From: Corallococcus exercitus
Lineage (GTDB): Bacteria > Myxococcota > Myxococcia > Myxococcales > Myxococcaceae
Direction: 5' to 3'
Length of the DNA: 29,627 nucleotides
NCBI RefSeq assembly: GCF_003611585.1
Contig: NZ_RAVW01000068.1
Span: 1 to 29,627 of the forward strand
Position numbers and translations under genes: made by a program. The notes under the pieces were generated by a model. That model worked only from the letters and a program-made list of their open reading frames with translations, made no database searches and had not been told where the DNA came from. Positions 7,337 to 9,018 of this stretch are shown here, one piece after another. The first letter of the stretch is position 1; each line of letters begins with the position of its first letter.

Positions 7337-8260
7337 ATGCGTTTCCGGAGGTGCCGCGCACTCTTGCTTCTGTTCCTTTGCTCGGCCTGCGCTACGACGG
7401 ATCCGATTCCGAAACAACCAGCGGCACGCACTCGACGGATTGCAAACCTCCAGCGAGCGGCGGCGCTGCCATGGAGGGACGGTGGGCAGTGCGTTGTCCA
7501 CGAGGCGTCCCAGCCTTGGTCCGTGCTGGTGGAGCGGTGCTATCGGGCCCTCGACCATGACCGGGTCGAGTTCCACGACACCACGGGAAGATGCACGGTT
7601 GCCTCCGTTGATGCCGCGACCGTGGGGCTCGGGTTCTGCGTGCTGGCTGCGCCTGAAATCGCCGTGGGAGCCGTCATCGTCTTGGGCGTGGTGGTGGTCG
7701 CCGTCGCCATCAAAGCGGAACTGGATGCGTATGAACTGCGCCACCTCTACCCTGAGGAAGCGGGGACCTCACAAGGGGCGAGCGTCGCATCCCGGGAGCC
7801 TGTAGCAAAGCCGAAGCCCAGGCTGGAACCGGAGCCAGCAGGCCAGGGCAGGCAGCCCCCGGTGCCCCCCGTGCCCGTGGGCCGGACGGGCCGTGCCAGT
7901 TGCGAGCCTGTTCCCGTGCCACACGCAGGCGAGGATGACTCGCATAACGAGTGCGCCGACAAGTTCCCACCGAACCGTTATCCCGGGATGGACGTGCTCG
8001 TGGGTGGCGTGCGCTTCGATGCACTGCAAGTCGGTGTCCGCAAACTGTGGGAGATCAAGACGCATCAGTTTGATTCGTACAATGATTTTGTCCAGGAACA
8101 GGAGATCAGGAAGGAAGTGAAACAATTAATGCAGGAGCGAGACGTCGCAAAGGCATGCGGATATGGCTTCGTCGTGGGAGTGAGCACCCACGCGCATAAA
8201 GCCGCGCTGCTCGAAGAACTTCCAAAGCTCGATGTCGTCGTCACAGGATGTAAACGATGA
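7337..8260 (+). CDS. Lipoprotein with C-terminal PD-(D/E)xK-like putative nuclease toxin domain (polymorphic toxin candidate, SitA-like)
   Basis: Lipobox: MRFRRCRALLLLFLCSAC. Internal 30-aa hydrophobic segment, then a Pro-rich linker. C-terminal ~110 aa contains FD-x10-EIK (VRFDALQVGVRKLWEIKT), consistent with a restriction-endonuclease-fold core. GC drops markedly from ~7960 onwards. The ORF-track entry 6749-8260 extends upstream as an RR-rich antisense artefact; the ATG at 7337 gives the lipoprotein signal. Confidence 0.65.
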   Translation: MRFRRCRALLLLFLCSACATTDPIPKQPAARTRRIANLQRAAALPWRDGGQCVVHEASQPWSVLVERCYRALDHDRVEFHDTTGRCTVASVDAATVGLGFCVLAAPEIAVGAVIVLGVVVVAVAIKAELDAYELRHLYPEEAGTSQGASVASREPVAKPKPRLEPEPAGQGRQPPVPPVPVGRTGRASCEPVPVPHAGEDDSHNECADKFPPNRYPGMDVLVGGVRFDALQVGVRKLWEIKTHQFDSYNDFVQEQEIRKEVKQLMQERDVAKACGYGFVVGVSTHAHKAALLEELPKLDVVVTGCKR

Positions 8261-9018
8261 GCACGCGAAAAAAGCTGACACTCATCACCTACGCCCCTGC
8301 CCTCGTGGGCAAAGACAGCCGCACGCTCAATGTCATCCATGGAATGGAGAATGCGTTCCCTGGCTTACGACTGGAGTGGGAAGTTGGCGAAAGTGGGCGC
8401 CCCATCGCGTTGCCACAGCGTGACACCTGGCTCGTGGAAAGAATCGAGGACGGTGGATTCCCGGTCGTGTGCAACGGGGACGAACGTTACCCCGTGACGG
8501 TCTGGGCAATTGAAAGCTCAGGGCTCTCCAGTCCAGGCGGACAGCCCCAATTTGAAGTGCACGCAAAACTGCCACTGGACGGGCCCGTGGTCGCGGCAGC
8601 GGCGGCTCTGCTTGAGGCCGTGGCGGAGGGGGCACGGTCGTTCTGGGGTCATGCGTCGCCGTATGGCTACGGCTCAGAGGTCGCGCAGCAGTTCCGCCGC
8701 TCGCCAGACGACCCCGAGCGTTCACCCCGTGGGCTTCCAATGCTCAACCTTCCGGAGAAGAGCCCCAGGGCGGAGACTCCCTCTTTCCTCGGGTGGCTGA
8801 ACTATTGGTCCGCGGCTGCCGCGGAGGTCATCGGGTTCCCGGATCCTGCTCGCGATGCCGAGTTGCTCACGCGGGCACGTCGCACTCCGTCAGGCGGGTG
8901 GATCGTGCAGCTCACGGATGCACCGCTTGATTACGACAACCCCACTCACCTGGAAGCGCTCAAGCGGGCCTATGAGCGCTTCCCGGTGATTGGCGGGCGC
9001 ACAGCGCCTCGACTGTGA
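8257..9018 (+). CDS. Putative cognate immunity protein (translationally coupled to upstream toxin gene)
   Basis: ATGA start/stop overlap with the upstream gene (ATG 8257-8259 / TGA 8258-8260). Low GC in the 5' half. No signal peptide. No known catalytic motif. Confidence 0.6.
   Translation: MSTRKKLTLITYAPALVGKDSRTLNVIHGMENAFPGLRLEWEVGESGRPIALPQRDTWLVERIEDGGFPVVCNGDERYPVTVWAIESSGLSSPGGQPQFEVHAKLPLDGPVVAAAAALLEAVAEGARSFWGHASPYGYGSEVAQQFRRSPDDPERSPRGLPMLNLPEKSPRAETPSFLGWLNYWSAAAAEVIGFPDPARDAELLTRARRTPSGGWIVQLTDAPLDYDNPTHLEALKRAYERFPVIGGRTAPRL

Follow-up and report, generated by a model that had tools for sequence, protein, structure and literature searches.

A predicted lipoprotein nuclease toxin (DUF6310) and its putative immunity partner (DUF5953) in Corallococcus exercitus

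Myxobacterial kin discrimination is currently explained by type VI secretion (T6SS) effectors, Rhs proteins and six SitA lipoprotein families. The SitA toxins are delivered by TraAB and are paired with SitI immunity proteins (Vassallo et al. 2017, 2019, 2021), and their families are defined by escort domains of ~375 amino acids (aa; PMC8546572). Pairs made of a Tox-REase-5 toxin (PF15648) and an Imm52 immunity protein (PF15579) have been shown experimentally to be DNase (and RNase) effectors with their immunity proteins (PMC9990079; bioRxiv 10.1101/835710). T6SS pairs of this type are known in Pseudomonas aeruginosa (TseT-TsiT, PA3907-PA3908) and in Burkholderia gladioli (TseTBg), and in Myxococcus a PF15648 toxin domain already works as SitA3 cargo (PMC8546572). 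Here we analyse a two-gene cassette on contig NZ_RAVW01000068.1 of Corallococcus exercitus (the whole stretch of DNA analysed, 29,627 bp, is called the window below). An earlier note, made from the sequence alone, had taken these genes for a lipoprotein toxin followed by its immunity gene. We propose, with a probability of about 0.78, that they form a polymorphic toxin-immunity pair acting by the mechanism set out in the last section.

The predicted nuclease domain, its partner and the membrane module

The product of the first gene, called the toxin below, matched Pfam family DUF6310 (PF19829; 195.3 bits, E 4.1e-58) over residues 183-305, that is positions 3-126 of the 126 of the profile. The product of the second gene, the immunity protein, matched DUF5953 (PF19378; 380.2 bits, E 5.4e-114) over residues 19-250, positions 2-233 of 233. 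Both scores exceed the Pfam gathering scores of 27 and 25 bits, respectively. Structures of the two proteins were predicted from family alignments, and the predicted folds match the two chains of the TseT-TsiT effector-immunity complex; Foldseek returned the same top two matches, with probabilities 1.00 and 0.95. The toxin model has a PD-(D/E)xK fold closest to TseT, the fold expected of a Tox-REase-5 domain, and the immunity protein, encoded directly downstream of this Tox-REase-type toxin, is predicted to adopt the fold of PA3908, a solved Imm52 protein. The immunity protein contains no hydrophobic segment above threshold, in agreement with the absence of a signal peptide noted earlier.

The putative catalytic residues D228, E239 and K241 lie on consecutive beta strands of the C-terminal domain model (pLDDT 84-95). 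D228 is invariant, and at E239 and K241 conservation is complete or at least 90%, distant carriers of the domain included. The PD-(D/E)xK core that had been read from the sequence is thus upheld by conserved residues on the core strands of a confident model. More widely, D219, D228, E239, K241, H203, D208 and N213 are kept even in distant carriers; one DUF6310 subfamily has DxK (WDVKT) instead of ExK. Four cysteines, Cys189, Cys206, Cys274 and Cys305, show little or no variation in any architecture, the fusions to eCIS_core, CBM_2 and transglutaminase domains described below among them. They may form a metal or Fe-S site or disulfides.

A link at the sequence level to Tox-REase-5, Imm52 or defence systems was searched for and discarded, nothing significant being found in Pfam (E <= 1), NCBIfam, PADLOC or PDB profiles. 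The Pfam search for Tox-REase-5 gave no match at E <= 1 with the window toxin or any of 56 family members, and the window immunity protein had no Imm52 match at E <= 1. Weak, sub-threshold matches to the Imm52 hidden Markov model (HMM) were obtained with 6 of 54 DUF5953 members (best E 0.056), and some members are named Imm52 or DUF3396 in UniRef. NCBIfam had no significant match for either cassette protein, PADLOC had none for the toxin and a single marginal one (E 0.007) for the immunity protein, and PDB profile searches with the window proteins do not recover TseT.

The toxin begins with a predicted type II signal peptide. Its lipobox, C-S-A-C18, departs at position -3 from the PROSITE-type rule, and 103 of 108 full-length homologues comply with a PROSITE-like version of that rule (LSAC, ISGC, FSAC, others), so that the lipoprotein signal proposed earlier holds despite the deviation of the window copy. 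Outer-membrane sorting in M. xanthus follows the rule of no Lys at +2 and no Ala at +7 (PMC5562445; used for SitA1). The toxin lipobox residues fit this pattern: +2 is Ala in 101 of the 103 homologues and +7 is Ala in only 4 of 103, the window copy having Ala and Ile, respectively.

Behind the lipobox comes a small N-domain (aa 19-96; mean pairwise identity 0.70, ratio of non-synonymous to synonymous substitution rates, dN/dS, 0.27). It has no match in Pfam or NCBIfam, and the AlphaFold2 (AF2) model makes it helical, with pLDDT 82-90 for aa 31-70. The internal hydrophobic stretch pointed out in the earlier note is found at ~97-125, with a 19-residue Kyte-Doolittle mean (KD19) of up to 2.83, and AF2 puts a helix at aa 110-137. 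This predicted transmembrane (TM) helix is the best-conserved segment of the toxin (0.93 identity to the query, dN/dS 0.16). The linker that follows, which is Pro-rich over residues ~150-195 as had been described, has the lowest identity of all regions (0.52), the highest dN/dS (0.45) and a pLDDT below 50.

A TM-like segment was looked for in 49 representatives with unrelated N-termini and at least 150 residues before DUF6310 (cut-off KD19 >= 1.8). It was present upstream of the domain in 35 of them, at a median of 81 residues, and was usually followed by a Pro/Lys-rich linker (P0422, P0423, P0437, P0425, P0485, P0503, P0510 and others). Helix and toxin domain thus move together from platform to platform, which supports a functional tie between the two; the earlier note had guessed at a translocation element. 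Because helix plus linker precede DUF6310 on unrelated carriers, the helix most likely places the nuclease at, or carries it across, an inner membrane. The recurrence is also compatible with receptor-like type I membrane proteins bearing a cytoplasmic suicide nuclease.

Pairing, carriers and variation of the cassette

In species-representative genomes 318 loci were found, of which 80 were kept and examined. DUF5953 lies directly downstream of DUF6310 in all 80, usually overlapping it, and tandem arrays of two or three toxin-immunity pairs occur; among the 80 loci, at least 7 copies belong to one genome, that of C. carmarthensis. This strict pairing, with the folds of the two TseT-TsiT chains, supports the reading of the locus as a toxin/immunity cassette, and the comparison across loci that the earlier note had called for shows a co-inherited gene pair with polymorphism in toxin residues 246-307 and in the N-terminal part of the immunity protein. 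The toxin has more than 1,100 full-length relatives. The best 120 are nearly all ~305 aa long and 63-82% identical to it over the whole length, with several per genome, and more than 100 full-length homologues show joint conservation of the N-terminal part and DUF6310.

Lipoprotein-type members with a genus name come from Corallococcus, Myxococcus, Pyxidicoccus, Stigmatella, Archangium, Cystobacter, Hyalangium, Vitiosangium and Citreicoccus. Since 285 of the 314 clusters of neighbouring genes are singletons, the pair is an autonomous two-gene unit scattered through the chromosome. For the most part it is bordered by unique chromosomal genes, and an IS21-like transposase is close to 3 loci; plasmid and phage searches returned no copies, and the search for mobile-element ends gave short flanking repeats at chance level and nothing conserved past the immunity stop. 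Decayed relatives (P0128, P0151, P0137) occur beside intact ones: some are frameshifted, with C-termini in the +1 frame of DUF6310, and in others an internal deletion has removed the catalytic core. Under the label "Comamonas sp. KCTC 72670 / JC664", assemblies (L029, L031; BNCN01000001.1, BNCN01000015.1; P0327) carry Myxococcaceae-type loci, 70-72% identical to the window toxin, and these records are probably mislabelled or contaminated.

The toxin domain is reused on other carriers. In 150 listed representatives of a HMMER scan with the domain alone, DUF6310 is always C-terminal, including in proteins of 560-1,130 aa. Ten long representatives were compared with Pfam, and the N-terminal domain was eCIS_core (DUF4157), a marker of extracellular contractile injection system (eCIS) cargo, in five, Transglut_core in three and CBM_2 in one; several distinct lipoprotein N-termini also carry DUF6310. 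A DUF5953 gene again follows the eCIS_core-DUF6310 and CBM_2-DUF6310 genes, and one of these examples sits on a contig of 48% GC, too low for a myxobacterium. Behind the transglutaminase-DUF6310 example comes a 118-aa open reading frame (ORF) without known family, not DUF5953.

Conversely, the lipoprotein/TM N-module is also joined to an unrelated Cys-rich C-terminus of ~60 aa, in at least 11 clusters at 90% identity (P0150, P0152, P0156-P0180 etc.; L081:4001-5295). This C-terminus, the one alternative type found on the N-module, has six or seven conserved Cys and the pattern …WRERCxDHYVxC…ESQCQSC..LC.R.GQWP.EANG.PCPGG; in locus L081 it is followed by an unrelated 187-aa ORF, helical and cytoplasmic, with no Pfam match. 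As DUF6310 is C-terminal on several carriers, DUF5953 moves along with it, and the N-module can bear another C-terminus, a true polymorphic toxin system (sensu Zhang/Aravind) is supported by the sequences, as the earlier note had anticipated.

Variation within the cassette is uneven. Mean pairwise identity is 0.82 in toxin residues 189-245, and drops to 0.59 in 246-307; it is ~0.60 in immunity residues 1-175 and 0.81 in the immunity C-terminus. A nucleotide comparison with the orthologous locus of C. interemptor (L006) gives 91-94% identity in the flanks and only 70-74% in the segment 8017-8616. Likewise, the nearest database relative is 84% identical in 246-307, compared to 95-98% for the core, and the nearest relative varies by segment, being P0100 for the N-part and P0088 for 246-307. 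P0088 and P0242, one of the closest immunity proteins, both lie on contigs of 9,787,125 bp and thus most likely on the same chromosome. Identities in toxin 246-307 correlate with those of the immunity N-part (rho 0.30-0.33), and identities in the toxin N-part, TM helix and linker show ~0 correlation with it. We conclude that the exchanged or fast-evolving unit consists of toxin residues 246-307 and the N-terminal ~175 residues of the immunity protein. Residues 246-307 are proposed to form the immunity-specificity surface. The pattern is one of mosaic evolution in a specificity module; the C-terminal domain has not been replaced as a whole. Purifying selection acts on all regions (pairwise Nei-Gojobori dN/dS 0.12-0.45), which indicates that the cassette copies are functional. 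Region-wide positive selection was considered and rejected, no pairs exceeding 1 except for 6% of the pairs in the linker.

The earlier note had seen a fall in GC over the toxin C-terminus and the 5' half of the immunity gene, and had taken it for the signature of a swapped module. The computed profile agrees with the fall itself: GC of 200-bp windows is 0.525-0.57 across 7900-8400, against a background of ~0.70, and the lowest 400-bp window (GC 0.54) has z = -4.8 relative to the rest of the window. At third codon positions, the N-part of the toxin has a GC (GC3) of 0.74 and its DUF6310 part one of 0.63, with 0.56 for residues 246-307; the value is 0.66-0.73 for the immunity gene, compared to 0.88-0.98 for neighbouring genes. 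Codon usage is therefore atypical in the entire cassette, and 63 paralogues show the same depressed GC3 profile. The lowest-GC part is toxin aa 246-307 (0.51). The deeper dip is due to a K/E/D/N/I/F-rich sequence, with GC at second codon positions of 0.31. The dip is thus a family trait and not the mark of a recent exchange, and a recent horizontal swap marked by low GC was discarded. What survives of the swapped module is a hypervariable unit at that place, and what does not is the exchange of a whole domain.

Layout and surroundings of the cassette

Coordinates are collected in Table 1; the reading frames and the ATGA overlap agree with those given in the earlier note.

Table 1. Features of the cassette in the window
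Feature	Position	Strand	Remarks
Upstream leader	7254..7336	+	candidate -10-like TAGACT (7254-7259) and Shine-Dalgarno sequence GAGGA (7324-7328); putative promoter
Toxin gene (ORF1)	7337..8260	+	307 aa
Type II (lipoprotein) signal peptide, ending at lipobox Cys18	7337..7390	+	Cys18 invariant
Extracytoplasmic N-domain (predicted), aa 19-96	7391..7624	+	invariant Cys52, Cys68, Cys86; from conservation and AF2 model
TM/hydrophobic helix, aa 97-125	7625..7711	+	core IAVGAVIVLGVVVVAVAI; conserved Cys101 and A-P-E motif
Flexible linker, aa 126-188	7712..7900	+	charged, then Pro/Lys/Glu-rich
DUF6310 predicted nuclease core, aa 189-245	7901..8071	+	H203, D208, N213, D219, Cys189/Cys206 conserved
Core residues D228 (8018-8020), E239 (8051-8053), K241 (8057-8059)	within 7901..8071	+	
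Variable toxin C-terminal subdomain, aa 246-307 and stop	8072..8260	+	Cys274, Cys305 conserved
Overlap of toxin stop and immunity start	8257..8260		ATGA
Immunity gene (ORF2)	8257..9018	+	253 aa
DUF5953 variable N-terminal part, aa 1-175	8257..8781	+	identity ~0.60
DUF5953 conserved C-terminal part, aa 176-253 and stop	8782..9018	+	identity 0.81

The ATG at 7337 is the true toxin start. It is preceded by the GAGGA Shine-Dalgarno sequence; start codon, Shine-Dalgarno sequence (AAGGA/GAGGA) and ~100 bp upstream are conserved in 64 paralogous cassettes, and the N-domain that follows is under purifying selection. The RefSeq version of the toxin (P0003), 100% identical over its 245 aa, starts at an internal GTG and thereby misses signal peptide and lipobox as well as a portion of the N-domain (compare window 7337-7520); the same short annotation is found in ~8 of the 120 best toxin homologues. 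The signal peptide and lipobox that reveal the nature of the toxin are thus absent from the public annotation.

Upstream, the paralogues share an element with the consensus …GCGTGCTGGCATACTCC…, ~75 bp before the toxin ATG (64 loci); it looks like an extended -10 or a motif of the TGGCA type. At this element the window copy (7240-7336) diverges (…GCGCGCTAGACTGGAGC…), and the C. interemptor locus has ~370 bp of extra sequence inserted just upstream of the toxin gene. A scan for the sigma-70 consensus found no promoter match upstream of the cassette, a terminator scan found one terminator-like match, at chance level, and Rfam recognised no RNA family anywhere in the window. A 21-nt hairpin in the immunity 3' end (8942-8993) was discarded: 19 of 21 pairs form here and 8-15 of 21 in paralogues, and as pairing is not kept, the hairpin is a by-product of the conserved ALKRAYERF coding sequence.

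A convergent gene (9020-9826, minus strand; 268 aa, no Pfam match) ends ~1 bp past the immunity stop, so that there is no space for a terminator after the immunity gene. Beyond it lie genes for an RdgC-like protein and a Peptidase_S13 DD-carboxypeptidase (9696-10685, minus strand, and 10540-12021, plus strand). On the other side, divergent from the toxin gene, 4839-7118 (minus strand) encodes a 759-aa homologue of the eukaryotic Major Vault Protein (MVP), which matched Pfam Vault, Vault_2/3/4 and MVP_shoulder with E down to 3e-45. Bacterial MVP homologues, myxobacterial ones included, have already been described (preprint bioRxiv 10.1101/872010). A second, larger low-GC island is present at ~14800-17600 (50-56% GC vs ~70%). 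Its ORFs are 14963-15814 (283 aa, no Pfam or PADLOC match), 15947-16414 (155 aa, no match) and 16623-17420, whose 265-aa product matched Pfam Abi_C (abortive infection C-terminus) at E 1e-11, and the island may be a small defence islet.

Mechanism, alternatives and comparison with known systems

We propose that the toxin carries a lipoprotein signal peptide when synthesised and receives its lipid at Cys18. Its small, disulfide-capable domain (aa 19-96) would lie outside the cytoplasmic membrane and the helix at ~97-125 in a membrane, with a Pro-rich tether of ~60 residues bearing the presumed PD-(D/E)xK nuclease (aa 189-307), whose nearest solved relative is TseT. The translationally coupled, cytoplasmic DUF5953 protein, Imm52/TsiT-like, would bind and block this nuclease, pairing specificity coming mainly from toxin residues 246-307 and the N-terminal ~175 residues of the immunity protein. 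A cell that receives or keeps the toxin without a matching immunity allele would suffer cleavage of nucleic acid, most likely DNA. The many diverged copies per genome would then make up a strain-specific toxin/immunity repertoire, which fits myxobacterial kin discrimination. A toxin/immunity function as such we hold to be very probable, and its combination with a PD-(D/E)xK nuclease highly probable; for use between cells the balance is only mildly favourable, and TraAB outer-membrane exchange (OME) is a doubtful delivery route.

Several observations speak against this proposal. The tie to Tox-REase-5/Imm52 is structural only, at 8-15% identity and on predicted models, and neither DUF6310 nor DUF5953 is mentioned in any paper found. 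The four invariant cysteines of the nuclease domain are left unaccounted for. No conserved SitB-like, chaperone, secretion, PAAR or eCIS neighbour exists among the 314 neighbour clusters, and no region-wide dN/dS rises above 1. Finally, a cleaved signal and one stop-transfer helix predict an inner-membrane protein with its nuclease in the cytoplasm of the producer, a C-in topology that, if the prediction is right, is awkward for an exported toxin.

The earlier note had suggested membership of the SitA families or delivery by OME, and one may ask whether the cassette is a seventh SitA-like family, an outer-membrane-sorted lipoprotein passed by TraAB with the short N-module and helix as the escort domain that would bring the nuclease through the inner membrane of the recipient. 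The lipobox, with its conserved sorting pattern (+2 Ala, +7 rarely Ala; rule from PMC5562445), agrees with this, as do the C-terminal nuclease, which shares an operon with the immunity gene behind it, the many alleles in each genome, and the N-module with at least two different C-termini and different downstream genes. All genus-named lipoprotein-type members are in Cystobacterineae, where SitA/TraAB was described, and a Tox-REase-5 domain is functional as SitA3 cargo (PMC8546572). However, the whole pre-toxin region is ~170 aa after cleavage, compared to the ~375-aa escort (PMC8546572), so that membership fails the one defining feature tested. Of the SitA families, SitA6 was compared: its models PF09533/TIGR02269 gave no match in Pfam or NCBIfam, nor did any other lipoprotein family model. 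A helix of KD 2.83 should stop at SecYEG and block Lol extraction, and lipoproteins of the inner membrane reportedly do not take part in OME (PMC5562445, PMC8546572, PMC12077181). A conserved SitB-like or mobile-element neighbour and plasmid or phage copies are also missing. The N-module being short, the SitA6 models giving no match and inner-membrane retention being predicted, delivery by OME is unproven, and a seventh family of this kind is unlikely.

A more tentative idea, to which we give still less credit, is that helix, Pro-rich linker and DUF6310 (with DUF5953) constitute a self-contained membrane-crossing warhead mounted on eCIS cargo, secreted or surface proteins and lipoproteins, the lipoprotein version being an additional kin-discrimination toxin family. 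The toxin would reach the periplasm or outer membrane of a neighbour, for example by OME, and its single TM helix would enter the inner membrane of the recipient, the nuclease thereby being threaded or tethered into the cytoplasm. Neither a ~375-aa escort domain nor a host receptor would be needed.

It is improbable that the toxin is not transferred at all, and acts as an inner-membrane-anchored, self-directed nuclease whose cytoplasmic domain is inhibited by DUF5953. Such a module could be of the toxin-antitoxin (TA) or abortive-infection type or serve developmental lysis, with the lipidated domain as an envelope sensor or the immunity protein as a labile partner. The predicted N-out/C-in topology, which puts toxin and inhibitor in one compartment, the tight ATGA translational coupling and the lack of linked secretion genes would suit it, and several long relatives are type I-like (signal peptide, a large transglutaminase-like or CBM_2 domain outside the cytoplasm, TM helix, DUF6310). 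Burkholderia Tox-REase-5/Imm52 pairs have been argued to derive from type II TA systems (bioRxiv 10.1101/835710), and insulation between paralogues could also account for the divergent interface. Against it, the eCIS_core fusion suggests a weapon meant for export, both proteins have a secreted effector-immunity pair as their nearest solved relatives, and one N-module bears alternative C-termini. Five to seven or more diverged copies per genome, together with the hypervariability of orthologues, fit kin-discrimination arsenals better than defence, and PADLOC found no meaningful match. A housekeeping or decaying family without a role in conflict, such as a membrane-tethered repair or competence nuclease with its regulator, the GC dip being noise, could appeal to the annotation of both genes as DUFs only, the silence of the literature, the GC3 uniformly low in paralogues (which makes the dip itself no evidence of recent transfer) and the frameshifted or internally deleted copies, but is very improbable in view of purifying selection in every region, strict pairing, a scattered, non-syntenic, multi-copy distribution confined to few lineages and not universal, shuffling of the domain with its immunity gene onto toxin-delivery carriers, and best structural matches that are a toxin and its immunity protein.

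If the toxin-immunity reading is right, two Pfam DUFs acquire a concrete function, DUF6310 as a TseT-like nuclease toxin and DUF5953 as an Imm52-like immunity protein. Hundreds of myxobacterial genes belong to these two families. An extra expanded lipoprotein toxin family, if true, would alter the predictions of social compatibility made from genome "barcodes". The recurrent TM helix plus linker may help to explain how nuclease toxins pass through the inner membrane or attach to it, a step unsettled for SitA toxins.

Compared to the described systems, the cassette shares features with each. As in TseT-TsiT, the immunity gene is immediately downstream and the nuclease domain is at the C-terminus of its carrier. 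Unlike that pair, it shows no significant sequence similarity and no HMM match to it; the carrier has a lipoprotein signal and a TM helix instead of being a T6SS effector loaded by PAAR/chaperone, genes for PAAR, VgrG or DUF4123 are absent from its vicinity, and the nuclease domain has its four invariant cysteines. A paper on "four homologous toxin-immunity systems" of M. xanthus was set aside, as it concerns AHH/Imm11 T6SS pairs and not DUF6310/DUF5953.

T6SS effectors of the prePAAR/Tse6 type carry N-terminal TM domains. With these, and with the cytoplasm-entry domains of CdiA-CT toxins, the window toxin shares, in architecture only, a hydrophobic or entry element N-terminal to a nuclease that would act in the cytoplasm; unlike them, it has no PAAR, Eag chaperone or CdiB/CdiA context, and a single helix follows a cleavable lipoprotein signal. 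In eCIS cargo, DUF6310 followed by DUF5953 also ends eCIS_core (DUF4157) proteins, whereas the window toxin is without eCIS_core and the window without eCIS genes; those proteins show that the toxin module is portable, and do not show how the window copy is delivered.

With SitA/SitI, the cassette has in common the outer-membrane-sorting lipobox, the conserved N-module followed by a nuclease C-terminus, a cytoplasmic immunity protein encoded behind the toxin in the operon, a multitude of alleles in each genome and the same taxa, and one SitA3 allele uses a Tox-REase-5 domain (PMC8546572). It differs from SitA by an N-module of ~170 aa with a strong TM helix instead of a ~375-aa escort, and from SitA6/SitI6 by the absence of a match to PF09533/TIGR02269 or to the immunity model PF09535 (identifiers from PMC12077181). 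There is no SitB gene or clear mobile-element context, and the toxin domain is mostly fixed (DUF6310), with one alternative C-terminus found, unlike in SitA. We conclude that DUF6310/DUF5953 is a TseT/TsiT-like module on a previously undescribed lipoprotein-TM carrier and that, unlike TseT, DUF6310 is massively expanded in Myxococcaceae and Archangiaceae.

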